Assembly (NCBI RefSeq): GCF_000284455.1 | Contig: NC_017039.1 | Span: 390,001 to 422,000 of the forward strand | Source: Synechocystis sp. PCC 6803 substr. PCC-P | Lineage (GTDB): Bacteria; Cyanobacteriota; Cyanobacteriia; Cyanobacteriales; Microcystaceae | DNA: 32,000 bases | Direction: 5' to 3' | Shown here: positions 9,377 to 27,267 of the stretch, one piece after another | Layout of the letters: every line of letters starts with the position of its first letter | Numbering within the stretch: the stretch's first letter is position 1 | Translations under genes and position numbers: made by a program | The notes under the pieces: model-generated | Database searches by the model: none | The model's input: the letters and a program-made list of their open reading frames with translations, nothing else | What the model was told of the DNA's origin: nothing

Positions 9377-10702
9377 TTAACTTTCCCACGCCACCACTCG
9401 ACCTTTTAAGCTGTGATTCCACCAAGGACTGTTGTAGGCGGAAGTTTGCAAAGTGCCCCTTTTTAGGGTCCAAGCCTGATCGGGATCAAACAAAATACGG
9501 GAATTACTAACTTCTGGTAAACCTAAGCATCGCCGGGGATTGGTGCTCAAAGCTCGCCACAATGCCATTGGAGTTATCAGATTTTTTTCCACTAACCCTT
9601 GCCATAAACAGGGCAAAACCAATTCATAACCGATCGCCCCGGGGGGAGTTTCCGCAAAGGTTTGGGTCTTTTCTTCGTAAGTGAAGGCTTGGTGGTCCAC
9701 CGCAATGGCATCAATGACGCCGGATTTAACCCCTTCGATTAGCGCTAGCCGATCGCCTTCGTTACCCAGGGGAGGGTCAAAACGCAAATTGGGATCGTAG
9801 TGGGGAGTGTGGGGCGGTAAACCATGGGCGATCGCCTCATTACTGAGCAGGAGATGGTGCCAATTGACGCTGGCGGTGCAATTTAAACCCTGACTTTTAG
9901 CTTGGACAATTAATTCTACGCCCCGGGCGGTGGAAATTCGCATGAAATGCACGGGAGTCCCATAATGGGGCAACAATTCCAGCAAACTGGCGATCACCGC
10001 CGCTTCGGACATCACCGGATCCGGTGGCAGGCCCAACTGAATCGCCAAGGGCCCTTCCCGCATTACCCCATTTCCCCGCAGGGAAAGATTAAGGGGCACC
10101 AAAGCTAAAGGTTTGCCGGCTATGGCTCCATATTCCAAAGCCCGCTGTAGTAACCGCCAATCTTGAATTGCGCCCCCATCGCTGAAGCCAATTACCCCTG
10201 CTTGGTCTAGCTCTCCCCATTCCGTTAACTGCTTGCCCTGGTTCCCTTGGGTGACACTCCCCCACCAATGGCATTGGACTGGGGCCGAATCTGGCCGATT
10301 TTCCGCTTGAGGGTCTCCAGGGGGCTGATGGTGAGCATTGACCCCTTCTATCTGGTTTAACCGTTGCTTTAACCATTGCAAAGTTTGGGGTTGATCCAGG
10401 GGAGGATCGGTGTTGGGTAAAATAGCCACGTCCCCAAACCCACCGGCGATCGCCGTTTTCACCAATTGACTGAGGGTTTCCCTGTCTTCGTACCCAGGCT
10501 CACCACTGTAGCTGTACAGATCTGCCAAGCTAGGGGCCAAAAGCAAATTTTCTCCGGGTATAACCGCCGCATCCGCCGGTATCGGGTAAGAATCATCTTC
10601 AACGGCCACAATGGCCCTACCCCGTACTATTACCGTCACCCGTGTTTCCTTGCCCTGTATGGGATCTAAGCAACGAACCTGGGGTCGACATTGCGTTTCC
10701 AT
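9377..10702 (-). CDS. pyrC: Dihydroorotase-like amidohydrolase (class I DHOase homolog with a degenerate metal site)
   Basis: 441 aa and colinear with class I DHOases (...GEPGYEDRETL...AGGF..V..LPNT.P..D...). The canonical D-x-H-x-H-x-R-E-P-G motif reads DLYSYSGEPG here. Confidence 0.75.
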   Translation of the reverse strand: METQCRPQVRCLDPIQGKETRVTVIVRGRAIVAVEDDSYPIPADAAVIPGENLLLAPSLADLYSYSGEPGYEDRETLSQLVKTAIAGGFGDVAILPNTDPPLDQPQTLQWLKQRLNQIEGVNAHHQPPGDPQAENRPDSAPVQCHWWGSVTQGNQGKQLTEWGELDQAGVIGFSDGGAIQDWRLLQRALEYGAIAGKPLALVPLNLSLRGNGVMREGPLAIQLGLPPDPVMSEAAVIASLLELLPHYGTPVHFMRISTARGVELIVQAKSQGLNCTASVNWHHLLLSNEAIAHGLPPHTPHYDPNLRFDPPLGNEGDRLALIEGVKSGVIDAIAVDHQAFTYEEKTQTFAETPPGAIGYELVLPCLWQGLVEKNLITPMALWRALSTNPRRCLGLPEVSNSRILFDPDQAWTLKRGTLQTSAYNSPWWNHSLKGRVVAWES

Positions 10703-14646: not shown

Positions 14647-17600
14647 TTAAATTACAGCATTCAGATCAACACCAAAAATGCCAGCCTGGGCGATCGCCTG
14701 GGGAGAACCAGCTTCAAACACACTGGAGGAAATCCAGTTCCAGTCAGCACTAGAGTTCCAAACACCAATTTGATTAGTGTTGAGGTTTTGCCACAGCACT
14801 TGGTTAACCCCTTGTACAGTTTCCGCCGCTAGGGCTTGCCAGTTACCGAGGTTGTTGTCAAAGGCTTCCCCAAGGTATTTGATTGGTGTGGTTAAATCAT
14901 CCCCAGATTGGACGTAGTAATTACCCAAGATGCCTTCCAGGAGAGTTGTAGAACCTTGGTTTTCCACGGTCGTCAGGCGATCGCCAAGGAGGTCATCGTT
15001 GTTGATGTCAATCTGGAAGGTAACTTCTGCTTCCAGAGTATTGAAGGAATTGGTAGGCCAAGTTTGCGAAGAAATCCAGTTCCAGTTGGAGTCGGCATTC
15101 CAAACACCAATCTGACCAAGGTTGGGATTTTGCCAAAGCACTTGATTGATGCCATTGACCGTTTCTGCTTCCAAAATTTGCCAATTGCCAAAGGTGCCAC
15201 TGGCAAAGGGTTGATTGTTAAATTTAAGCTGTACTTCATCACCCCCAGGAAGTAGGACAAAGAAGAAGCCATTTTCGGCCATTACGCCAATTTCGTTGGC
15301 GATCGGCTCAACGGGGGAAGCAAGGTTAAGGCCGACAATTATGGGGTCATGGTCTGAGGAGCGATAGGGAACCGTACCATCAAAAATATTGACATCCCGC
15401 CCAAAGTCGAGGTTGTAGTCCAGGGCATCTGCTTCATCGGCGTTGATCCCCCATTCTGTTGCGCCAGTTACCTGTGCTGCCAAGCTAGCACTGGCAAAGG
15501 CATAGTCCAGGGTACCGGTTTGACCATCAAAGACATAGGACGTATTGGTCCCGCCACTGAACTGGGCCCCGAGATTGACATAACCAGCGCTTTCCAGAGC
15601 TTTAATGGGATCTTCCTGGGCGTAGGCATTATAGTCACCTAAAAGCAGATAATCCGAATCATTTACCCCGGTGGGATTGGTATTGAGCCATGTCACTAAC
15701 TCCTGGGCAGCTTTGGTGCGGGTATCGTTCCAGAAGCCCTGACCATCATTTTGATCAGAATCGGGATTACCGGCATCGCCAGCAGTTAAACCGGAAGCAC
15801 CTTTGGATTTAAAGTGATTGACCACTGCGGTGAAGGTTTCACCCGTAACTAAATCCCGGAAGGTTTGGGCCACCGTTGGACGGTTGCGGTTTTCGCCAGT
15901 GTTATTGGGGTCAAGGAAAGCCTGGGTATTTAAAATGGCAGCATCCCCGACCAGACTGACCGCACTAACTTTGTAAATCAGACCAACGGCGATCGCATCG
16001 GTGCCAAGAAACTGAGTACCGGGATTGACCCAATTGTAAGTTCCTGCGCCGGCCACCGCATTAAGCTCATTAACCAAGTTTTCAATAGCATTGCCACTGG
16101 AGCCGGGGAGAAAATCATTTTCTAGTTCCGCTAGGCCTAACACATCGGCATCGATCGCCAGTAAGGCGGTAACCAGTTTGTCCGTTTGGCGATCAAATTC
16201 CGCAGTGGTGTCTGCCCCACGGGGATCTTGACCAATGGCCGTGCTTACACCGGACAGGTCGATGGTCTTGAAGTAGTTGAGGACATTGAAGCCCGTTACC
16301 TTCAGGGAACCGCCAACATTTTCTGGTGTGACAGGGCGATCGTTCACCTTAGTAAACTGATTTGTCCCATCTACAGCAGAGCGCACCCGCCAAGTAGCTC
16401 CACTGGAAGCGTTACCTGCCCACTGGTAGCTGAGAACGCCAGTGAGGTTATTGATTGTGTCGCCCATGCGAATATCACTAGCGGTGCTGAAGCTGGAACC
16501 AAAACCATCCAGATTGCTAATTTCTGCGTTCTGCACACTCAGGCCATCATCGTAGGTAATGGTGCGAGCACCGATTTCCTCTCGGTATGCCCCATAGCCT
16601 GCCACATTAGCATCATTAAACTGGGTGAATTGTTGGGGACGACCGCCTTGGCTGAGTTTGATTTCATTAAAGCGATCGAGATTAAACATTTCCGTAATCG
16701 TCAGGGTATCAGTGAATTTCACCAACATCCCTTCAAAAGCTTCCAGATCGGGCTGGGGCGTTCCCCCCTGACTCTCGGTGGTACCGGCAGTGGGCAGGGT
16801 AATATTCGCAGCGGTCGGTAAGGTGTTGCCGGAACTAATTACCGTGATGTTGGTGATCGTATCAATCTGAGTTTCACCAAAGAATTCATCAACGGTTCCT
16901 GTAATTTGAACCTTGTCGCCAACGTTAACATCGGTAATGAAGTTGCCGTTCTCAAAGATGAAAATCCCTTCTGAAGTAGCAACATTCCCATCAACATCTG
17001 CATCTTCTTCCTGAACGTAGAAGCCCCGCAGATTGCGACTGATATCCCCATCTCCGTCTTGGAAGTCTCCCACCACGATCGCCTCAATCGTCACAACATT
17101 GTTGACTAAGGGACTCGCAGTACCAGTGCCTTGAATCTCATGGATTTTAACTATAGTGGGATCGACACCTGTGATGTAGATACTGGGGTTACCGATATCA
17201 CCCCCCGTTGAGGCGTAGGAGTTTTGGGCATCATCTACTGAAGACAGCACCCAATCGGCATCAATTTCCTGATCTGCTAATTGGTCAGCCGATATCCAGC
17301 CACTGGAATTTTGAGTACGGATGGTGCCAGAAAAATCTTGATCTCCGTAGGTGAGACGATCTACTAAGTTACCGGTAGCATCGTACAGGTTAATTTCATC
17401 ACTACGACCTAAATTTTGGCTAAGTCCTCCAATAATTTTAGCTGTTGCCGGCAAGTTCCAAGCTGTTCGGAATGTCTCGGCGTCTGCCTCCGTTAAAATC
17501 ACCGACTCACCCGGTTGCACTACCCCAAAAGCACTCAGGTCAACTGAACCTGCAACTCGCCCACTGTCGGAAAAACTCCAACCTGTCATATCCACAGACG

Positions 17601-20304
17601 ACGTATCAATGTTGGTAAACTCGATAAATTCGCCGTCAGCGCCAGAGTACATAAACTCAGTAATTTGGAGCCTGGAGACGGTAATGGGAGTGTCATTGTC
17701 CTCGATGTTTACCGTAGCGCTGGAGGCACTGGTAGCCACATCATAATTGGCTGTGTCCGTTAGGGTGATTACGATGGACTCTGTGGATTCGATAATCACG
17801 TCATCAATGGGATTAATCGAGATCTTGACTTGGGACTGACCCGCCGGAATCGTTACTGTTGTGGGATCAATGGCAGCGTAGTCCGTACCGTTAGCCGCAT
17901 CGCCGCTAATGCTATAGGTCACATCCAAGGCGGTTGAGGTATCACCTGTGCGGAGAATGGTGAACTCCCCCGGAGTGGGGCCATTTTCGGAACCTGTAGC
18001 TCCTGTGGCTGCAATTCCCACCGTTGTATTTGAGCTGACAGAGCCGGCGATCGCCCCCGGGGAACCGTTTAAAATAACGCCTTCACCGGCATCAATCACA
18101 CTGAAGGCTCCATTGCTACCCACGGTACTTAGGTTAGCGACGCTGGGGTTGCCGAGGGCATTATCGAATGTGCTAAAGGGAGAGGTGGATGGAGATGAGC
18201 CAAAGGTTACCCCTGTGATTAGTGAACCCGTGGCATCAAATAAATTAATCGCATCTCCACCAGTGCCCAAACCGGGCCCACCGTAGGTACCGATCGCCAA
18301 GCCAGCGGGGGCTGTCCCACCAAACCAAAGATCAATAAAGGCGGTGATCGTGTTGGCATCACCATCCACAAAGACCACCGATTGACCCGGGGCAATGTTG
18401 GTTACACCAGCAAGGGCGGAAGCATTGGCAAAGCTGGCGGAATCGTCATCAACCTTCCAGCCTGTGATGTCAATTGCATTGGCACCAGTATTGGTGACTT
18501 CAAACCAGTCTGCCCCCACAGAGCTATTACCACTGGACCAGGGTGCAACCTCAGAGATAATTAGGTCGGAAATTCCGGCAGTATTAGTAATATCAAGGGT
18601 GAAGGTGGTGATGGCATCGGGAGTATTGCCCAGGGTCGCATCATCCACGGCGATCGTCACTTCATAACTGGATTGGGTGGAAAAATCTAGAACAGTACCA
18701 GCCTTAAGGAACAACCCATTCCCGACAATTTCAAAGTTGCTAGCATCGGCTCCCGATAAACTCAACGTATTGGTTCCCAGGGAATCATCACCAATAATAA
18801 TATTGCCGAGTTTAATCGCCGAGGTGGTATTAGCATTTTCCAATAAATTATTTACTCCATTGGCCACACTGACCGTCACCGGAGCCGCATTGTTGAAGAC
18901 ATAGTCCGCAGGGGCATAAACCCACACTTGGGGATGATTCCCATCGCCGCCGCCGCTTTCACTGGTGATGTAGAGCAGGCCATCATTGTCTAGGGTTACT
19001 CCCTCAAAACCTTGGTTTGTGACCGATAGGGGGTTATCGGCATCGGCATTAATCACCAATTCACTCAGGATATTACCGGAGCGATCAACTTCCACCAACC
19101 TGCCATCTTCCTGACCCAGCACCAGCAAATTGTTGGCGATCGCCCCACTGACAAAGCTGGAATTAGCCAGGGCAAAGACATCGGCAATATCGGTCATCCC
19201 GAGGAGAGCCGGATCAAATAAATTGCTGGAGTCCTGTGTGGTAGGAGAACCATTGCTGGCTGTACCGGCACCGAAATCAATGGTGGTTTGGAAAATGCCT
19301 TGGGGATTAACTTCCTTGACGAAAATAAAACCACCGGTTACGGGATCTTTGGAAACTCCTTCTAAACCAATGTTGCCCACCGTGGTGCCCAAGGTGACCG
19401 CCTGGACATCGGCCCGGCTTAGGGTTCCTCCCGCCGCATAGGTAAATAGATTGGCTTGGCGTAGCCGCTCTTCCACCAGCACAAACTGACCATTGCCCAC
19501 GTAGGTTAATCCTTCGGGGTCAGCAAAGTCCCCCGCCGTCAAGGTCATGGAGCTTATCAGTTGACCTCGCTTATCAATCTCAACGATCGCCGTTCCTTCA
19601 TCCCCCAACACAAAAAGGGTGTTGGTATCGGGATTGTAGGTAATGGCGGAAACCTCCAGGGCTAGCTCACTGCCAGCAGGGGGGGCCACTGTCCGGGTGG
19701 GAACAGGGAGGTCATAGCGACCAATGCGGACATAGGTAGACAAGTCTAGTCCATTAGTTCCACCAGCACTAAAACTGGCGATCGGCCAAGATGGTGTAGC
19801 AGTTGCATTCACATTTGCCGCGTCATCATCCAGGGCATCTACTCCACTAAAAGTCCACTCAGACGCATTGAAAGTGCTGCTCGGAAGGGCGCCATTGTTG
19901 CGATAGGCCCAACCGTCAAGGTGTTCCCAGGGCCTGCCAGTACCGTCTATACCAATTTCGCCAAATACATCAACAATTGAACCATTTTCAAAAAGAATTA
20001 TTGTATCGTCCCCATTTATATTCGCTACACCATCGGTAAAGTTGGGATTAAACCCAAAAAAGCTATTAAATCCTGATGTCTCACTGGCAACGTAAATGTA
20101 ATCCCCTGCCGTTGCAGAGCCGGAGAGGGTAAATTCTGGGCCGGTGCTCGCATTGCCATTGGTGGCGGCTTCAATGCCATACATACTGAGATCGGCAATG
20201 TCAGCTAGGACGTATAACTCGATCGCCTTCGGGAGTCCACCGGGCAGTGGTCCGTCAATAATACCGGTAATAATTAAGTTAGACACGTCAAAAATCTCCT
20301 CCAA
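14647..20304 (-). CDS. nucH: Giant extracellular nuclease, ExeM/NucH family (LTD, beta-propeller, cadherin-like, Calx-beta and EEP nuclease domains, plus a Trp-rich C-terminal module)
   Basis: 1885 aa. An endonuclease/exonuclease/phosphatase domain lies at about 15340-16308 (LKVTGFNVLNYF...SSDHDPIIV). It follows an IHEIQGTG OB-like region typical of ExeM/NucH. Lamin-tail-like segments are present (ISEVAPWSSGNS..WFEVTN and ITEFMYSG..EFIEFTN), as is a Calx-beta-like block. The start codon is TTG, with an in-frame TGA two codons upstream. Confidence 0.85.
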   Translation of the reverse strand: MEEIFDVSNLIITGIIDGPLPGGLPKAIELYVLADIADLSMYGIEAATNGNASTGPEFTLSGSATAGDYIYVASETSGFNSFFGFNPNFTDGVANINGDDTIILFENGSIVDVFGEIGIDGTGRPWEHLDGWAYRNNGALPSSTFNASEWTFSGVDALDDDAANVNATATPSWPIASFSAGGTNGLDLSTYVRIGRYDLPVPTRTVAPPAGSELALEVSAITYNPDTNTLFVLGDEGTAIVEIDKRGQLISSMTLTAGDFADPEGLTYVGNGQFVLVEERLRQANLFTYAAGGTLSRADVQAVTLGTTVGNIGLEGVSKDPVTGGFIFVKEVNPQGIFQTTIDFGAGTASNGSPTTQDSSNLFDPALLGMTDIADVFALANSSFVSGAIANNLLVLGQEDGRLVEVDRSGNILSELVINADADNPLSVTNQGFEGVTLDNDGLLYITSESGGGDGNHPQVWVYAPADYVFNNAAPVTVSVANGVNNLLENANTTSAIKLGNIIIGDDSLGTNTLSLSGADASNFEIVGNGLFLKAGTVLDFSTQSSYEVTIAVDDATLGNTPDAITTFTLDITNTAGISDLIISEVAPWSSGNSSVGADWFEVTNTGANAIDITGWKVDDDSASFANASALAGVTNIAPGQSVVFVDGDANTITAFIDLWFGGTAPAGLAIGTYGGPGLGTGGDAINLFDATGSLITGVTFGSSPSTSPFSTFDNALGNPSVANLSTVGSNGAFSVIDAGEGVILNGSPGAIAGSVSSNTTVGIAATGATGSENGPTPGEFTILRTGDTSTALDVTYSISGDAANGTDYAAIDPTTVTIPAGQSQVKISINPIDDVIIESTESIVITLTDTANYDVATSASSATVNIEDNDTPITVSRLQITEFMYSGADGEFIEFTNIDTSSVDMTGWSFSDSGRVAGSVDLSAFGVVQPGESVILTEADAETFRTAWNLPATAKIIGGLSQNLGRSDEINLYDATGNLVDRLTYGDQDFSGTIRTQNSSGWISADQLADQEIDADWVLSSVDDAQNSYASTGGDIGNPSIYITGVDPTIVKIHEIQGTGTASPLVNNVVTIEAIVVGDFQDGDGDISRNLRGFYVQEEDADVDGNVATSEGIFIFENGNFITDVNVGDKVQITGTVDEFFGETQIDTITNITVISSGNTLPTAANITLPTAGTTESQGGTPQPDLEAFEGMLVKFTDTLTITEMFNLDRFNEIKLSQGGRPQQFTQFNDANVAGYGAYREEIGARTITYDDGLSVQNAEISNLDGFGSSFSTASDIRMGDTINNLTGVLSYQWAGNASSGATWRVRSAVDGTNQFTKVNDRPVTPENVGGSLKVTGFNVLNYFKTIDLSGVSTAIGQDPRGADTTAEFDRQTDKLVTALLAIDADVLGLAELENDFLPGSSGNAIENLVNELNAVAGAGTYNWVNPGTQFLGTDAIAVGLIYKVSAVSLVGDAAILNTQAFLDPNNTGENRNRPTVAQTFRDLVTGETFTAVVNHFKSKGASGLTAGDAGNPDSDQNDGQGFWNDTRTKAAQELVTWLNTNPTGVNDSDYLLLGDYNAYAQEDPIKALESAGYVNLGAQFSGGTNTSYVFDGQTGTLDYAFASASLAAQVTGATEWGINADEADALDYNLDFGRDVNIFDGTVPYRSSDHDPIIVGLNLASPVEPIANEIGVMAENGFFFVLLPGGDEVQLKFNNQPFASGTFGNWQILEAETVNGINQVLWQNPNLGQIGVWNADSNWNWISSQTWPTNSFNTLEAEVTFQIDINNDDLLGDRLTTVENQGSTTLLEGILGNYYVQSGDDLTTPIKYLGEAFDNNLGNWQALAAETVQGVNQVLWQNLNTNQIGVWNSSADWNWISSSVFEAGSPQAIAQAGIFGVDLNAVI
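14671..15315 (-). repeat. Copy 1 of the 645-bp inter-gene repeat (3' end of nucH), partner at 20462-21106
   Basis: The alignment has a constant offset of 5791 bp and no indels. My 60-nt block comparisons give 54-60 of 60 identical, except one variable patch at 14941-14956. Only 2 mismatches occur in 15001-15240. Confidence 0.95.
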
Positions 20305-20416: not shown

Positions 20417-23400
20417 TTAGACTAAAACGGAGTCAGCCGTGGTTAGGACGGTAGTTGGGATACCAAAAATTTCAGCTTGGGCGATCGCCTGGGGAGAACC
20501 AGCTTCAAATACATTGGAGGAAATCCAGTTCCAATCAGCACTAGAGTTCCAAACACCGATTTGGTTGGTGTCGAGATTTTGCCACAGCACTTGATTAACC
20601 CCTTGTACAGTTTCCGCCGCTAGGGCTTGCCAGTTACCGAGGTTGTTGTCAAAAGCCTCCCCTAGGTATTTGATTGGTGTGGTTAAATCATCCCCAGATT
20701 GGACGTAGTAATTACCCAAGATGCCTTCCAGCAGACTGACGTTGCCCTGGTTTTCCACGGTCGTCAGGCGATCGCCAAGGAGGTCATCGTTGTTGATGTC
20801 AATCTGGAAGGTAACCTCTGCTTCCAGAGTATTGAAGGAATTGGTAGGCCAAGTTTGCGAAGAAATCCAGTTCCAGTTGGAGTCGGCATTCCAAACACCA
20901 ATCTGACCAAGGTTGGGATTTTGCCAAAGCACTTGATTGATGCCGTTGACCGTTTCTGCTTCCAAAATTTGCCAATTGCCAAAGGTGCCACTGGCAAAGG
21001 GTTGATTGTTAAATTTAAGCTGTACTTCATCGCCCCCAGGAAGTAGGACAAAGAAGAAGCCGTTTTCGGCCACTACTCCAATCTCATTGGCGATTGGGTC
21101 AACGGGCCCAGTGGAATCAATAACAGTATCCACACGGAAGGCTAGATTTTGGATTCGGACATCAAATTCCGGGGAAGTGTCTGCCTGATTAAATGCAGTC
21201 TCCAGGCTATTGAAGTTGGCTGCTAAATACTCCGCTAGGACATCTTGCTCGGAACCATCGGGGGCAAAGGTGGCCAGGCCGGTGCGGGGAGCATCCGCTG
21301 GCAGAACCAAATCCACCAAATCAACAGATTCACCACTGGGGAAAGGATAGCCATCACCACCATTGGCCAAAAATCCCAGGGTGACCATGCGGAAGGTGCG
21401 GCTAGGATCTCCGACCAATTCACCATTACGCACAACAACATCCAGGTCATTGCCGGCCTCATCTTCGATCGCCAGGGAAAGAACACGATCGCCAGGGGCA
21501 CGGTTGAGGTCAAAACTGAAGGCAAAGCCACTGACTTGGGGAAAACGACCCTGTTGGTTGGTGCCATCACTGGCCGCTACCCCGTGTTCCACCAGGGCTA
21601 ATAATTCAGCCGCAGTAACGGTGATCAAGCTCAAGCCATTGTTAAAGCTAAGGGCATTGGCAATGTCGGTTTCAGAAATACCGCCTGCGGGTTTAACAAT
21701 ATTGCCCTCTGCATCGGTAACAGCTTCGTTGGGAAGTCGCTCTGGTTCTCCGGTACCGCCGGTGGGGACTAGAATCCGACCGATATCATCCCGAATACCG
21801 CCCCCATTTTTCAGGGAGATAACCACAGAGGAATCGATGGTTTTGGCGATCGCCAGGTTGGCATCGGCGGTGAGGTTGCCTAAGTTGGTTTCCTGTTGGC
21901 GAATGGCCGGGCGTGAACCTTCAAGATAGACATTACTAACGCCAAAGACATTACTTTCCTTGGCAACAATGACTTCCCGCAGTTGGTCGACAATGGCTTG
22001 AATTTCTGGGTCGATCAATCCAGCGGCATTGAGATCCGCTACCCCTTGGTCGTCGGTGGCGTAGGCTCCACTGATATTGGGATCATAGCTCTCAGGAATA
22101 ATGATCCCGTTTTCATTGAAGTCAATGACTAAGCGACCAAGATATTTGTAGTTACCATCGGTGTTGACCACTGCTACAGGGTTACCGTCGGCATCGGTTT
22201 TGATAATAGGGTAAATACCTTGGGCACTGTCCCCAGCCCGGAGGCGATCGTTTTCATCCAACAGACGGGTGTTGGAACCACCGGCTACAATGATGTCAAC
22301 ATGCTTCAACCGAACAGCTAATTCCTGCTCAATGGCAATTTGTTGCATGTGGGCCAGAAGCACCACTTTATTCAGACCGGGATTAGCAGCGAGTAACCCA
22401 TCAACGTCCGCTTGAATTTCCGCCGCCAAAGCATCTAGCTGTTCAGGGGTTGGAACACCGTTAAAGGGTTGAGGATTAACCGTTACGCCACCGGGGCTAG
22501 AAATAGTAGTAATGGTGGGGGTAGTGGCCCCGACAATGCCAATTTTTTCGCCATTGACATCAATTACCGTAGTGGCGGCGATGCTGTTGGGCTGAGGGGC
22601 TTGATGGTCAGGCACCACTAAACCAGAAAGATTGCCATCGGTGGTGAAATCAAGGTTACTGCTCAGGTAAGGGAAGTTAGTACCGGGGAAGTTATCTTCA
22701 CCATTACCACCGATCAAATCCTGGATTAATGCCGTCCCCAAATCGAATTCATGGTTACCAAAGGCGATCGCCTGGAATCCTAATTCGTTTTGAATCAAAA
22801 TATCGGCCCGACCCACACCGCCAAACACATCTTCCGAAGCGGATAGGAACAAACCAGGAATGTAGGCATCGCCGGAGGAGAGAATCAAGGTGTTGGCAAA
22901 GCCCGCAGTACCGTCATTATCAATGTCTTGCTGGACAAGAGCATTGAGTACAGCGGAAAAACGGGGAATATCATCCAATGCGGGAACTCCGGCTTCTTGG
23001 TCAGCAGCATGGAATAACTGCAACCGGAAGGGCTGGGGAGTAGGTACGTTAACTTCAAAAACAGCAGTCGTGTTGCTAACCTCATTAGTCACCACCAGCA
23101 ATGGTTTGCCATTGGGACTATCGGCGGCATTAATGAAAATCAATCCTTCTGGGCCGGAATCGGTCAGATTGGACTCAGGATCAACAGTAAAGTCCCGGGG
23201 GTTAATATATTGAACAAACTCAGGGGATTGGGGGGTGGTCACGTCATAAACCATCACACCGCCAATGCGCTCTAGCCCCACAAAGGCGTAGGTACGGCCA
23301 TCAATGGTGCCCACTGTTACCCCTTCCGGTTCGGGGCCTTTATTATCACTACGATTGTCTAGGTCATTATTGTCGTTACTGGCATTGAAAAAGTCGGGGA

Positions 23401-24646
23401 TGGCTTCGGCAATAATGCGCTCAAAATCTTCGCCACTGTCGTAAACCAAATTGCCGCTGCTGTTCCAAATGGAAAAGGAACGAGAACCATAGACATAAAG
23501 TTCATCAAAATCCCCGTCCCCATCGGTGTCCCCTAACTTGGTGGTTACCGTCAGACGGCCAATGGCGGGATCGGCCTGCAACTCAGCGGCATTGGGAAAG
23601 GCGATGGGATCTAGAACTAAATCTTTAATCCGGGCCTCTTCAATAAAAATATCTCCTTCGCCATCAAAGGGAGGGGGTAAAAGGTCATCATCAGAGGGAC
23701 GATTGCGGGCATCCCCTTCGTTGGCAGTGATGTAATAGGTCTGGTCACCAACGGCGAAAGAAGCAATGCTATCGGGCATGTACATCCCGAATATGGGCCA
23801 GTTTTGAATATTGATCCCACCATCACGATCACTGGCATCCAATCCATTACCGGGCAAGCTATGGTCTTTAAAACCGAGGGGCAAAATCGCTTCCACGGTG
23901 GTGGTGGCAATATCAATTAGAGCGACAGAGTTATTCTCCTGTAAAGTTACCCAGGCTTTGGTTCCATCACCGCTGAAGGCAATATATTCGGGCTCTAAAT
24001 CCTCCGCTACGGTACTTTCTCGGACAACGTTACCGTCAGCATCAAAAATTTGCCCCAAAAATCTGACGCCGGCGGATTGTAATTCGGCTTTTTGAGCATT
24101 AAAACCGTCAAAAGTGGCATTCTGGGCAACTAAATTAGTAAATCCCCCGGTAATATCAACAATACTTACTGAACCAACGGGGTCAACTGTGTAGCTTTCG
24201 TTAGGTTCCCCTTCGTTGGCAGTCAAAATTTTGGTTCCATCAGGGCTGAAGGTAACCATGTCCGGCAGAAAGCCCACTGAGACTTTGCCCAAAAAAGCCC
24301 CTGTGGTTGCATCAAAAAACTGCACTTGACCAGCTTCTTGGTTATTCAAATCATCTCGAATTGCCAGAGATACAGCCACAATTCCCGCACTGGGAGTGCC
24401 GGCCTTACCCACTGCCACACTGTTGGGCACAGGACTGAAACCAGGGGGAATGCCATCGAAATTTAGGGCTAAATCTTCAATCTTGACGGGGTTAGTGGGG
24501 TCGGCTAAATCTAGAATTTCAATCACGTCACCGGCGACCACAAATAGGCGCTTAGTACCGGGGTCGAAGGCGGGAATTTCTGCCCCGTTGCTACTGGCAA
24601 AGCCGCCAATTTTGCTAATCAAACTAACGCCGCTGTTAATGGTCAT
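20417..24646 (-). CDS. phoA: Atypical large alkaline phosphatase: N-terminal beta-propeller, UshA-type metallophosphatase/5'-nucleotidase, and a Trp-rich C-terminal module
   Basis: 1409 aa. Calcineurin-like metallophosphatase motifs are present (LQLFHAADQEAG, SGDAYIPG, FGNHEFD) with a 5'-nucleotidase C-terminal domain at about 21107-23035. The N-terminal third is a propeller-like repeat region. A Pho-box array lies upstream. The match to the 145-150 kDa cyanobacterial atypical PhoA is from memory. Confidence 0.85.
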   Translation of the reverse strand: MTINSGVSLISKIGGFASSNGAEIPAFDPGTKRLFVVAGDVIEILDLADPTNPVKIEDLALNFDGIPPGFSPVPNSVAVGKAGTPSAGIVAVSLAIRDDLNNQEAGQVQFFDATTGAFLGKVSVGFLPDMVTFSPDGTKILTANEGEPNESYTVDPVGSVSIVDITGGFTNLVAQNATFDGFNAQKAELQSAGVRFLGQIFDADGNVVRESTVAEDLEPEYIAFSGDGTKAWVTLQENNSVALIDIATTTVEAILPLGFKDHSLPGNGLDASDRDGGINIQNWPIFGMYMPDSIASFAVGDQTYYITANEGDARNRPSDDDLLPPPFDGEGDIFIEEARIKDLVLDPIAFPNAAELQADPAIGRLTVTTKLGDTDGDGDFDELYVYGSRSFSIWNSSGNLVYDSGEDFERIIAEAIPDFFNASNDNNDLDNRSDNKGPEPEGVTVGTIDGRTYAFVGLERIGGVMVYDVTTPQSPEFVQYINPRDFTVDPESNLTDSGPEGLIFINAADSPNGKPLLVVTNEVSNTTAVFEVNVPTPQPFRLQLFHAADQEAGVPALDDIPRFSAVLNALVQQDIDNDGTAGFANTLILSSGDAYIPGLFLSASEDVFGGVGRADILIQNELGFQAIAFGNHEFDLGTALIQDLIGGNGEDNFPGTNFPYLSSNLDFTTDGNLSGLVVPDHQAPQPNSIAATTVIDVNGEKIGIVGATTPTITTISSPGGVTVNPQPFNGVPTPEQLDALAAEIQADVDGLLAANPGLNKVVLLAHMQQIAIEQELAVRLKHVDIIVAGGSNTRLLDENDRLRAGDSAQGIYPIIKTDADGNPVAVVNTDGNYKYLGRLVIDFNENGIIIPESYDPNISGAYATDDQGVADLNAAGLIDPEIQAIVDQLREVIVAKESNVFGVSNVYLEGSRPAIRQQETNLGNLTADANLAIAKTIDSSVVISLKNGGGIRDDIGRILVPTGGTGEPERLPNEAVTDAEGNIVKPAGGISETDIANALSFNNGLSLITVTAAELLALVEHGVAASDGTNQQGRFPQVSGFAFSFDLNRAPGDRVLSLAIEDEAGNDLDVVVRNGELVGDPSRTFRMVTLGFLANGGDGYPFPSGESVDLVDLVLPADAPRTGLATFAPDGSEQDVLAEYLAANFNSLETAFNQADTSPEFDVRIQNLAFRVDTVIDSTGPVDPIANEIGVVAENGFFFVLLPGGDEVQLKFNNQPFASGTFGNWQILEAETVNGINQVLWQNPNLGQIGVWNADSNWNWISSQTWPTNSFNTLEAEVTFQIDINNDDLLGDRLTTVENQGNVSLLEGILGNYYVQSGDDLTTPIKYLGEAFDNNLGNWQALAAETVQGVNQVLWQNLDTNQIGVWNSSADWNWISSNVFEAGSPQAIAQAEIFGIPTTVLTTADSVLV
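20462..21106 (-). repeat. Copy 2 of the 645-bp inter-gene repeat (3' end of phoA), partner at 14671-15315
   Basis: Same alignment as copy 1. The shadow ORFs 14908..15255 and 20699..21046 in the track are near-identical for the same reason. Confidence 0.95.
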
Positions 24647-24771: not shown

Positions 24772-24821
24772 TTCATAGAGAAATTAAGAAAAACTTATGG
24801 TTAGACTATGAAAAGGTTAAG
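24772..24821 (-). promoter_or_regulatory. Pho-box array (candidate SphR/PhoB binding site) plus -10 element of the phoA promoter
   Basis: The minus strand reads CTTAACCT-ttt-CATAGTCT-aac-CATAAGTT-ttt-CTTAATTT. These are four octamers at a strict 11-bp period. The outer two match PyTTAAPyPy(T/A) 8/8 and the inner two 6/8. CTC and then TATGAA (-10-like, 24772-24777) follow. The array ends 135 nt upstream of the phoA ATG. Confidence 0.65.
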
Positions 24822-24972: not shown

Positions 24973-25506
24973 ATGCAACAACGTGGCGTAACAATTTGGT
25001 TAACGGGACTGAGTGGAGCGGGGAAAACCACTATTACCCACGCATTGGAAAAGAAATTACGGGACAGCGGTTACCGTCTGGAAGTGCTAGACGGTGATGT
25101 AGTGCGTACCAACTTGACCAAAGGACTCGGTTTTAGCAAGGAAGACCGGGACACCAATATTCGCCGTATTGGTTTTGTGTCCCATTTGCTCACCCGCAAC
25201 GGTGTGATCGTCTTGGTTTCCGCCATTTCTCCCTACGCAGCCATCCGTCAGGAAGTGAAACACACCATTGGGGATTTTCTCGAAGTGTTTGTCAATGCGC
25301 CCTTGGCTGTTTGCGAGGAGCGGGATGTGAAGGGTTTATATGCCAAAGCCCGCAGTGGAGAAATTAAAGGTTTCACTGGCATTGATGACCCCTATGAGCC
25401 CCCCACCAATCCCGATGTGGAATGCCGCACCGACCTAGAGGAACTGGATGAAAGCGTGGGCAAAATCTGGCAGAAGCTAGTAGATCTAAAATATATCGAG
25501 GGCTAA
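24973..25506 (+). CDS. cysC: Adenylylsulfate (APS) kinase
   Basis: 177 aa. The P-loop is GLSGAGKTT, followed by LDGDVVR and ISPY motifs typical of CysC. Confidence 0.95.
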   Translation: MQQRGVTIWLTGLSGAGKTTITHALEKKLRDSGYRLEVLDGDVVRTNLTKGLGFSKEDRDTNIRRIGFVSHLLTRNGVIVLVSAISPYAAIRQEVKHTIGDFLEVFVNAPLAVCEERDVKGLYAKARSGEIKGFTGIDDPYEPPTNPDVECRTDLEELDESVGKIWQKLVDLKYIEG

Positions 25507-25663: not shown

Positions 25664-26347
25664 GTGAATCCCATTGAGTTGATGCAAAAGGGCGGCGTGG
25701 CCATGTGGCCCCTGCTTCTCCTATCGATTTTGTCCGTCAGCACCATCATCGAGAGGTTGTGGTTTTGGGGCCAAGTCATTCTCAAAAGCTCCCAAACGGC
25801 TTCCCGTATTTTAGACACGGCGGCCCGGGATTGGGATACGGCCATTCGAGTCGCCCAGGACAGTCGTCGTTTTCCCATTGCTAAATATCTGTTGGCTCCA
25901 TTGCGTTTGCCCCACCCAGACCCAGAGGTTTTTCACCTGGCGTTGGAGTCGGCGGCGGACGATCAATTGGCTCTCATGCGGCGGGGAGACAAAATTCTGG
26001 AAGCCATTATTGCCCTGTCCCCCCTATTGGGACTGTTGGGTACCGTGTTGGGTTTGATCCAATCCCTTAGTTCCATCCAAATTAGCGATTTGGGTACAGC
26101 TTCCACCGCTGGAGTCACCCTTGGTATTGGGGAAGCACTGATTTCCACAGCGGCCGGTTTGATCATAGCCATTGTTAGTTTGGCCTTTTACCGTGTGTTT
26201 CAGGGGCTATGGTTCAACCAAATGCGAGTCTTCCGTAAAGTAGGCAGTGAACTAGAGGTGCTCTATCGCCAACGCTGGTTTGAAGAGGAAATGGCCTACG
26301 ATGACGGCCTAACCCCCAGCCCGGAAGCGGAAAGTTTGCCCCAATAG
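25664..26347 (+). CDS. exbB: MotA/TolQ/ExbB family proton-channel protein
   Basis: 227 aa with three TM segments and the family core [12 protein letters not shown]...[15 protein letters not shown]. The track start is GTG 25664, with an alternative ATG six codons downstream. Confidence 0.85.
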
Positions 26348-26457
26348 TTTTGCTGGAATCAACTTTTCCAGGCTTGTTAGGATTGGGGAGGTTGATTGAG
26401 CCTATTTTTAGGCATCTTCCCCAGGATTGAGTCCGGTTTTTTCTCCTTCCCATCACC

Positions 26458-27267
26458 ATGGCATCTTCCCCTAAAGCCCCCAAGTCCCACCGTAAATTCC
26501 AGTCCATTTACCATCCCACCCGTCCCCTGTCCCTCTGGCAGGATAACCAACATGACCAGGGGGAAGTGCGCATTGAGATTATTCCCCTGATTGACGTTGT
26601 TTTCTGTATTCTGACCTTTTTTATCCTGGGGGCGGTGGGGCTATCCCGACAACAAGCCATTAGTTTAGATTTACCCCGAGCTAGCACTGGGGCTCCCCAA
26701 ATGCGGGAAATGTTTATGGTGAGCCTGGACGATCTGGGGCAACTTTATGTGGAAAAACAGCCGGTAAGCCAGGAGCAGATGGTTAGTGCCCTGCAAAATT
26801 ATCACCAATACAATCCCAGCGGTTTGATTGTGCTCCATGCTTCCCGCAATGCCAGTTATAACGATGTGGTGCAATTACTGGATACTCTGCGAACCGTGGG
26901 CGGCGATCGGGTGGCTTTAGCGACTTTACCCGGCGATGGCCAAACTCCCTCGGGCATGAACCCCAATAGCTTTAATAATCCTAATTTGGGATTACCGGGC
27001 ATGACTCCGGGCAACGCATTCCCCAATGGTGCCAATCCGGGAATGTCCAATTTTAATAACTCGAATCCTGGGGGTTCCGGTGCGGGCGTCCCTAATTTTA
27101 GTAACACTCCCTTACCAGGTATGCCCGATGCCAATGGCAATGTGTCTCCCAATCCTGGTATGAATCCTGGTTTTCCCGGTGGAGGCGCCATGAGCCCTGA
27201 CCCCAACTCCCAATCGCCCAATTTACCTGGGATGGGTAACACCGTGCCCAGTGCCCCCCAACAGTAA
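26458..27267 (+). CDS. exbD: ExbD/TolR family protein with a long Asn/Pro/Gly-rich C-terminal extension
   Basis: The ExbD core reads IEIIPLIDVVFCILTFFIL...LYVEKQPVS...ASRNASYNDVVQLLDTLR. About 100 aa of low-complexity N/P/G-rich sequence follows. Confidence 0.8.
   Translation: MASSPKAPKSHRKFQSIYHPTRPLSLWQDNQHDQGEVRIEIIPLIDVVFCILTFFILGAVGLSRQQAISLDLPRASTGAPQMREMFMVSLDDLGQLYVEKQPVSQEQMVSALQNYHQYNPSGLIVLHASRNASYNDVVQLLDTLRTVGGDRVALATLPGDGQTPSGMNPNSFNNPNLGLPGMTPGNAFPNGANPGMSNFNNSNPGGSGAGVPNFSNTPLPGMPDANGNVSPNPGMNPGFPGGGAMSPDPNSQSPNLPGMGNTVPSAPQQ

Follow-up and report, generated by a model that had tools for sequence, protein, structure and literature searches.

The window analysed here is a stretch of 32,000 nucleotides (nt), and all coordinates given below without a locus handle are positions in it. 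It contains two large open reading frames (ORFs) on the minus strand, phoA and nucH, which encode exoenzymes that end in nearly the same protein tail, and this tail is the subject of the present analysis. The protein of 1409 amino acids (aa) encoded by phoA showed 100% identity to the "alkaline phosphatase" entry of PCC 6803. In addition, a 30-mer upstream of phoA was identical to the Pho-box sequence published for "sll0654 sll0656 phoA nucH" (PMC1906773). On account of the exact Pho-box match and the 100% protein identity, the locus was assigned as the phoA-nucH Pho-regulon operon of Synechocystis sp. PCC 6803, and the Pho-box marks the two genes as co-regulated. The genes and the regulatory site were located as follows.

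14647..20304, minus strand: nucH (sll0656-like) ORF, 1885 aa counted from TTG; domains from the N to the C terminus are LTD (three copies), SdiA-regulated/phytase-like, Calx-beta, ExeM/NucH nuclease and W_rich_C (two copies) (Pfam, NCBIfam)
20417..24646, minus strand: phoA (sll0654) ORF, 1409 aa; domains from the N to the C terminus are choice_anch_I, 5'-nucleotidase/metallophosphatase and W_rich_C (two copies) (Pfam, NCBIfam)
24792..24821, minus strand: SphR Pho-box 30-mer upstream of phoA, exact match to the sequence in PMC1906773

In identity and anatomy, the tail of PhoA and NucH is, with essential certainty, a pair of tandem repeats of the Pfam family PF07483 (W_rich_C). The family profile scored 240.6 bits on NucH, 242.8 bits on PhoA and 247.8 bits on the module alone, compared with a curated gathering score of 26.2 bits. 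The E-values were 1.7e-72 for NucH and 3.5e-73 for PhoA, and each protein contained two matching stretches, covering profile positions 3-105 of 105. An earlier note on this DNA had placed the repeat in no named family; the matches at 240-248 bits overturn that statement, and a match of such confidence also removes the novelty of the domain, as that note itself had allowed. W_rich_C is thus already known as a sequence feature. The name of the family itself points to Synechocystis C termini of the PhoA/NucH kind, so the window proteins do not differ from the family but are the name-giving kind of member. Family-wide, W_rich_C is neither limited to Synechocystis nor always C-terminal. No NCBIfam model matched the module, Pfam at E <= 10 on divergent units revealed no second family, and the module had no match among PDB sequences, even at E <= 10. 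The view that its function is uncharacterised held up: in the literature searched, W_rich_C was mentioned only in a subtilase domain-architecture table, no study of the sll0654 or sll0656 C termini was found, and no solved structure matched. The reported lack of familiar motifs was likewise borne out, as the module contains no RTX GGxGxD and Pfam gave no SLH, LPXTG or PEP-CTERM domain.

The tail is encoded by a DNA cassette that is present in both genes. In an ungapped local alignment, 610 of 645 base pairs (bp) were identical (94.6%), and identity directly beyond the edges of the cassette was 22-27%. Thus, a near-identical block with sharp edges is present on both exoenzymes, as had been proposed, and it is grafted onto two unrelated catalytic proteins of one operon, as the remaining domains of NucH and PhoA differ. 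The 16-mer GAAATCCAGTTCCAGT was found at 14729 and 15071, with the 342-bp spacing reported before, and occurred again at 20862 and, with one mismatch, at 20520; it was matched in 0 of 100 shuffles. The count of two tandem units was also correct, but their size, given earlier as about 114 aa, was about 110 aa according to the unit hidden Markov model (HMM). The elements of the cassette and its surroundings were as follows.

14671..15315, minus strand: cassette copy A, 215 codons (ungapped local alignment, 645 bp)
20462..21106, minus strand: cassette copy B, 94.6% identical to copy A
14980..15306, minus strand: NucH W_rich_C unit 1, residues 1667-1775, with the loop E..F..D.N.DD..G intact (unit HMM)
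14980..15009, minus strand: DINNDDLLGD loop at the end of NucH unit 1, connecting to unit 2, calcium-loop-like DxNxD(G)
14650..14979, minus strand: NucH W_rich_C unit 2, residues 1776-1885, with a truncated loop and the end ...IFGVDLNAVI followed by the stop codon (unit HMM)
20771..21097, minus strand: PhoA W_rich_C unit 1, residues 1184-1292 (Pfam, unit HMM)
20438..20770, minus strand: PhoA W_rich_C unit 2, residues 1293-1403, with the loop replaced by ...IFGIPTTVLTT (Pfam, unit HMM)
20420..20437, minus strand: extreme C terminus of PhoA, ADSVLV, acidic and then hydrophobic residues (sequence)

The codons of copies A and B differed synonymously at 22 sites and nonsynonymously at only 8, which indicates that both copies are under purifying selection. 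At the protein level, the PhoA and NucH modules of PCC 6803 were 92% identical, whereas the stretch at the phoA locus of S. salina was only 76% identical to the PCC 6803 NucH module. The cassette has recently been copied or homogenised between phoA and nucH in the PCC 6803 lineage, and the W_rich_C pair is a discrete, mobile cassette of 645 bp. Units 1 and 2 shared only 37% protein identity, and for this reason Tandem Repeats Finder, which called no DNA tandem repeat at the cassette, is blind to them; a DNA tandem repeat was rejected as a description of the cassette on both counts. The DINNDDLLGD loop was kept in unit 1 of both proteins and lost in the terminal unit of both. Beyond the cassette, nucH ends with 24 nt (8 codons) and phoA with 45 nt (15 codons) of its own, and these two ends differed from each other. 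The terminal unit ended in hydrophobic residues in NucH (...IFGVDLNAVI) and in PhoA (...IFGIPTTVLTTADSVLV), and the ADSVLV at the extreme C terminus of PhoA is, from its sequence, a candidate terminus for an uncleaved type I secretion signal. Similar ends occurred in RTX-bearing PhoA orthologues and in other members of the W_rich_C family.

Conservation within the repeat was computed over 498 near-full units. The best-conserved residues were E100 (99%), G9 (98%), D106 (97%), W75 (96%), F103 (92%) and L13 (90%), followed by W48 (89%), D78 (88%), D110 (88%) and N108 (85%). The combination D106-x-N108-x-D110-G111 was conserved at 80-97%. Judged from this alignment, the hallmark of the family is the unit-end motif E..F..D.N.DG.IG, more than the tryptophans. 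The "WNW" motif was typical of the examined members from Synechocystis, Microcystis and Nostocales and was absent from the family-wide consensus. Patterns of the DxDxDG type are a known type of calcium-binding loop. The motif therefore suggests one putative Ca2+ site per unit, located at the junction between units.

The structure search proposed in the earlier note was run with AlphaFold2 and Foldseek and gave no significant match to a solved structure. For a single unit (NucH unit 2), the model built on an alignment of 30 units reached a pLDDT of 88.1 and a pTM of 0.81. In this prediction, four short strands are followed by four long ones that bear the Trp residues and finally by a helix, so that each unit of about 110 aa would fold as a compact all-beta domain with one helix. 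The two-unit model had a pLDDT of 86.5 and a pTM of 0.61, and the latter value suggests that the units are separate beads and not parts of a single closed domain. Against PDB, the best Foldseek E-value was 3.5e-3 for the two-unit model (TM 0.19-0.27) and 0.08 for the single unit, which aligned over about 90 residues to two adjacent blades (TM 0.43-0.45). No match reached E <= 1e-3 in searches of PDB with two units or one, or of BFVD with the unit. Nearly all of the weak PDB fold matches were beta-propellers (NHL, BtuG/BtuK1, BamB, GH43 and AADH), and the models thus weakly suggest a propeller-blade-like unit without a solved relative. A closed four-blade propeller is unlikely, given the pTM of 0.61 for two units against 0.81 for one and the lack of a 4-bladed hemopexin-type fold among the top 50 matches. 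No CBM, SLH, LysM or ricin-B match was obtained with Pfam, with the PDB sequence search or with Foldseek against PDB and BFVD.

The context of secretion was considered next to the structure. Both PhoA and NucH are acidic (pI [isoelectric point] ~4; 4.05), contain 0 Cys and have no N-terminal hydrophobic segment; their N termini read MTINSGVSLISK.. and (L/M)EEIFDVSNL.... No RTX GGxGxD motif was found in NucH, and PhoA contained one chance GGNGED in its core, outside the module. Among the window proteins there was no match to PF00353 (HemolysinCabind) or to bluetail NF041519 (a 55-aa C-terminal domain; >= 21 bits), a domain that was present in W_rich_C proteins of Microcystis and Nostocales. As reported previously, sll0654 and sll0656 were both detected outside the cells in the EXCRETE exoproteome, in which sll0654 was listed among 11 "putative T1SS [type I secretion system] substrates", with no signal peptide, a pI of 3.93 and 0% Cys (PMC11424642). 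SignalP predicted none for sll0654 (PMC11424642, Supplementary Table 2). Whole-cell proteomes likewise contain abundant PhoA, in amounts that follow the alkaline phosphatase (APase) activity measured in the samples (PMC3600050), and this is compatible with partial retention at the cell. Type I substrates have an uncleaved C-terminal signal of about 60 residues and are acidic and Cys-free, and their repeats are unfolded at the cytoplasmic Ca2+ level and fold outside the cell (PMC3034196).

Comparison of PhoA orthologues revealed a common core up to ...RIQNLAFRxDTVID, followed by a tail that depended on the lineage. Synechocystis species had two W_rich_C units at this junction. In many other cyanobacteria, with equal protein length, the core was followed by a Gly-rich linker, RTX nonapeptides and an end of about 70 aa, with termini such as ..AFVMV, ..AFTIV, ..FVEV and ..DFVFI. 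A Bacteroidota orthologue carried a T9SS Por_Secre_tail and the S. elongatus orthologue a DUF4214 domain, and others ended in DUF4114 or in nothing annotated by Pfam. The examined cyanobacterial orthologues contained 0 or 1 Cys and no obvious signal peptide. NCBIfam classes the core of PhoA as a 'choice-of-anchor I' domain and relates that of NucH to ExeM-GG, names that denote catalytic cores with alternative C-terminal sorting modules. From the lineage-dependent tails and these core names, it follows that the W_rich_C pair is the Synechocystis occupant of a sorting or export slot.

The family as a whole was surveyed by searching the unit profile against 1.84 billion proteins, counted as representative clusters. 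With a threshold of E <= 1e-3, this yielded 1,723 clusters, and with E <= 1e-30 it yielded 303; all 46 representatives scanned (46/46) matched PF07483. Arrays in the top 144 representatives comprised 2-12 units and usually lay in the C-terminal half of the protein. Fewer than 60 residues followed the last unit in 68 of the 144, including 48 with <=12 residues, and the other 76 had a longer tail, commonly of about 130-200 aa. Cysteine was lacking in 98 of the 144, and a signal-peptide-like hydrophobic stretch, scored by a heuristic check of N-terminal hydrophobicity, was found in only 1 of 79 complete-looking N termini. The Pfam partners in the 46 representatives were RTX (20), Calx-beta (12), the serralysin C-terminal region (7), cyclophilin (4) and subtilase, PPC and cadherin (3 each), together with matrixin, LVIVD, DUF4347, FG-GAP and GH5 cellulase. 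In 38 long-tailed members, NCBIfam identified the serralysin C-terminal region (16), RTX (12) and the "bluetail domain-containing putative surface protein" model (9), as well as choice-of-anchor Q, B and Z. The order in Microcystis was W_rich_C, RTX and bluetail. As the Microcystis arrays precede RTX and bluetail, W_rich_C is no universal C-terminal signal.

The tail most likely helps PhoA and NucH, which have no signal peptide, to exit the cell and stay nearby. The more specific proposal, in which W_rich_C is a C-terminal cassette for export and surface retention of type-I-secreted exoenzymes, is the reading we tentatively prefer, at somewhat less than an even chance; its export role is moderately supported, and the retention or binding role is its weakest step. 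Four steps would be involved. The best supported is that PhoA and NucH would leave the cell via a type I (ABC/MFP/TolC) system. Next in support, the terminal loop-less unit and the short hydrophobic tail may present an uncleaved secretion signal, which these parts would have to bear, as the catalytic cores are followed by no other element on the C-terminal side. In third place, the D.N.DG loops would be Ca2+-binding and would give the units stability outside the cell. The least supported step is that the folded units would keep PhoA and NucH at the cell surface or within the exopolysaccharide (EPS) layer by non-covalent contacts, and such retention would let the producer capture the phosphate released by the two enzymes. 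The two jobs would fall to W_rich_C since it is the whole non-catalytic C terminus and stands at the junction where orthologues carry RTX and a signal. The earlier guess at a targeting, anchoring or secretion module thus fits the circumstantial evidence, namely the junction shared with RTX and T9SS tails, the scarcity of signal peptides and Cys, and the listing of exoproteome PhoA as a putative T1SS substrate; as a pure C-terminal export signal, it fails family-wide.

Several results weigh against the export and retention cassette. About half of the family has a separate RTX block and C-terminal end after the array, and some members have a Zn-protease domain there; therefore, W_rich_C is not generally the secretion signal. 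The conserved cassette does not include the extreme C termini of PhoA and NucH, which are unlike each other. No type I secretion genes were present in the window or beside the one related locus inspected (P0018). The Ca2+ reading is a matter of motif resemblance only, and an hhalign comparison with the FG-GAP-like repeats of one protein (P0074) aligned just 10 loop residues, with a probability of 2.7%. The presence of PhoA in the medium (PMC11424642) means that any retention is at most partial. In addition, neither sequence nor fold searches revealed a lectin or CBM relative, and the literature search returned no work tying W_rich_C to secretion, Ca2+ or binding.

The strongest competing explanation is that the tail serves surface retention or ligand binding only, as a lectin-like, aromatic-rich beta domain that binds EPS, lipopolysaccharide O-antigen or an S-layer glycan, with export left to another element or route. 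It would account for the arrays of 2-12 units that stand, like passenger binding repeats, upstream of separate RTX or 'bluetail' ends, and for the presence of W_rich_C on many unrelated exoenzymes and next to adhesin-type domains (cadherin, Calx-beta, FG-GAP and 'choice-of-anchor'). The weak fold likeness to the surface ligand-binding propellers BtuG/BtuK1 and GH43 and the whole-cell abundance of PhoA, which tracks its activity (PMC3600050), agree with it as well. However, no known carbohydrate-binding family was matched by sequence or fold, and the conserved residues (Gly, the Glu/Phe/Asp loop and buried Trp) look structural and form no obvious binding site. Moreover, just 6-14 residues follow the module in Synechocystis, so that a C-terminal signal would overlap it. 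We regard pure binding as possible, though on the unlikely side. The opposite simplification, an alternative to RTX that would be unfolded at the low Ca2+ level of the cytoplasm, with Ca2+-triggered folding outside the cell ratcheting the protein out and no later function, would explain the use of the RTX junction in PhoA orthologues, the rank of the DxNxDG loop as the best-conserved motif of the family and the Cys-free, acidic hosts without signal peptide. It is unlikely because RTX co-occurs with W_rich_C in 20/46 representatives and the two are not simple alternatives, because there would be one putative Ca2+ site per 110 aa compared with one per 9 aa in RTX, and because the terminal unit of both window proteins has lost the loop. 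In addition, the AlphaFold2 prediction is a Trp-packed, hydrophobic domain and not a repeat with intrinsic disorder.

Two further explanations concern shape and substrate. If two-blade units stacked, or paired between chains, into a propeller-like body, the module could be a structural spacer or oligomerisation element; the beta-propellers among the weak Foldseek matches, one of them 8-bladed and made from two 4-blade fragments (6r5y), and the alignment of each unit to two adjacent blades (TM 0.43-0.45) point in this direction. Since these fold matches were not significant (best E 3.5e-3 for two units and 0.08 for one), the number of units varies freely from 2 to 12 with odd numbers included, and the two-unit pTM of 0.61 speaks against one closed body, this explanation is quite improbable. 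A domain that recruits phosphorylated polymers (extracellular DNA or organic phosphorus) as substrate would suit a module common to two Pho-regulon enzymes of one operon. It was rejected, with hardly any probability left to it, because the repeat occurs elsewhere on proteases, cyclophilins, cellulases and adhesin-like proteins and the module is acidic (pI ~4, with 24-27 D+E against 3 K+R), which is unfavourable for nucleic acids or phosphate esters. Returning to the export and retention cassette, a bolder version can be formulated, in which W_rich_C is an RTX-independent second class of type I secretion repeat, Ca2+-gated, Trp-packed, built of two sheets and able to take the place of the RTX block. 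The last unit, which lacks the loop, would serve as the uncleaved secretion signal, and the folded units would then dock the enzyme to the cyanobacterial surface or EPS. This version is doubtful; if true, it would explain how large exoenzymes exit without a signal peptide or RTX.

Known systems resemble W_rich_C in part. Like the RTX repeats with an uncleaved signal in HlyA, serralysins and cyanobacterial RTX proteins, W_rich_C has a C-terminal place in acidic, Cys-free hosts lacking a signal peptide, takes the same junction in PhoA orthologues and carries an Asp/Asn/Gly loop that hints at Ca2+ binding; the window proteins, too, end hydrophobically. It differs in having no GGxGxD nonapeptides or HemolysinCabind match, in its predicted 110-aa Trp-packed beta domain with a helix instead of a beta-roll, and in often occurring together with true RTX repeats. 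With sorting modules such as PEP-CTERM, GlyGly-CTERM, T9SS Por_Secre_tail and bluetail NF041519, it shares the pattern of equal catalytic cores with lineage-variable C-terminal modules, and W_rich_C proteins elsewhere end in bluetail; however, those are short signals or domains of 20-90 aa, whereas W_rich_C arrays reach 12 units. The loop 'FG.D.NGDG.IG.P' recalls the calcium hairpin of the integrin-alpha-like FG-GAP/VCBS propeller repeats, and the weak fold matches are to propeller blades, but a W_rich_C unit is twice as long as a single blade and includes a helix, and Pfam gave no FG-GAP/VCBS match at E <= 10. The WxL domain and the choline-binding repeats of Gram-positive bacteria are likewise C-terminal, Trp-rich and repeated on unrelated secreted enzymes, where they provide non-covalent surface anchoring; their envelope type and secretion route are unlike those of the cyanobacterial W_rich_C hosts, and Pfam detected no sequence relationship.

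The ways in which large exoenzymes are exported and positioned by cyanobacteria are poorly understood, and the ecology of blooms is shaped by the phosphate scavenging of PhoA and NucH. With about 1,700 clusters and tails that can be swapped with RTX, T9SS and others, W_rich_C is a reasonable handle on the export question. What is new here is how large the family is, its Ca-loop hallmark, the near-universal lack of signal peptides together with the scarcity of Cys, the junction swap with RTX and T9SS tails, and the lack of a structural relative; the assembled context amounts to a testable hypothesis, not a discovery. The genetics of PCC 6803 make the role of W_rich_C directly testable, and the module may be useful as a secretion or surface-display tag in cyanobacterial biotechnology.

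Other members of the family differed in arrangement and distribution. In P0079, P0082, P0092, P0106, P0140 and P0172, W_rich_C is N-terminal to a Zn-metalloprotease-like domain (HEIGHVLG motif), which reverses the 'C-terminal domain' of the family name. A pattern scan with one genome per species gave 36 loci, 35 from Cyanobacteriota and 1 from a Pirellulales metagenome-assembled genome (Planctomycetota; L027 6825-11326), in which two adjacent ORFs had three W_rich_C units each. The Arg-rich N termini of some metagenomic members (P0107, P0159, P0179, P0181 and P0189) also look planctomycete-like. At L037 6627-10699, a Nostocales-type DUF4347-LVIVD-W_rich_C-RTX gene appeared split into five or more gene calls, either by frameshifts or by assembly errors in the repeats. 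Many related loci stopped at contig edges within repeats, so W_rich_C arrays often break assemblies.

Within Synechocystis, the phoA gene of S. salina LEGE 00031 (L001 6125-10336) likewise ended in two W_rich_C units, and no nucH catalytic region was found within 10 kb downstream of it; the phoA-nucH operon layout is therefore not genus-wide. Another S. salina protein (P0001) had a module that shared 78% identity with the NucH module. Some proteins of 1,900-2,450 aa from other cyanobacteria combined the PhoA core (choice_anch_I plus 5'-nucleotidase) with a NucH-type nuclease (PF03372/PF19580), and such fusions (P0212, P0213, P0265, P0273, P0285, P0296 and others) often ended in RTX repeats. 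This 'Rosetta stone' arrangement supports functional coupling of the phoA and nucH products.

Minor observations were also made in the window. Counted from the first TTG, NucH has 1885 aa, compared with 1879 aa in GenBank AGF50644.1, a difference located at 20287-20304 (minus strand). The true start is probably the seventh codon, a Val, and the spacer between phoA and nucH would therefore be about 130 nt and not 112. Pairs of ORFs of 95-115 aa in other frames within the cassette, at 14908-15255 and 20699-21046 (plus strand) and at 14973-15272 and 20764-21051 (minus strand), are duplicated only via the duplication of the cassette, and nothing suggests that they are genes. A 441-aa ORF at 9377-10702 (minus strand), between the glyoxalase II and ammonium transporter genes, had no Pfam match at E <= 1e-5. 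An ExbB/ExbD pair (PF01618, PF02472) lies at 25664-27267 (plus strand), upstream of the phoA promoter in divergent orientation, and an APS kinase gene at 24973-25506 is situated between this pair and the promoter side of phoA.

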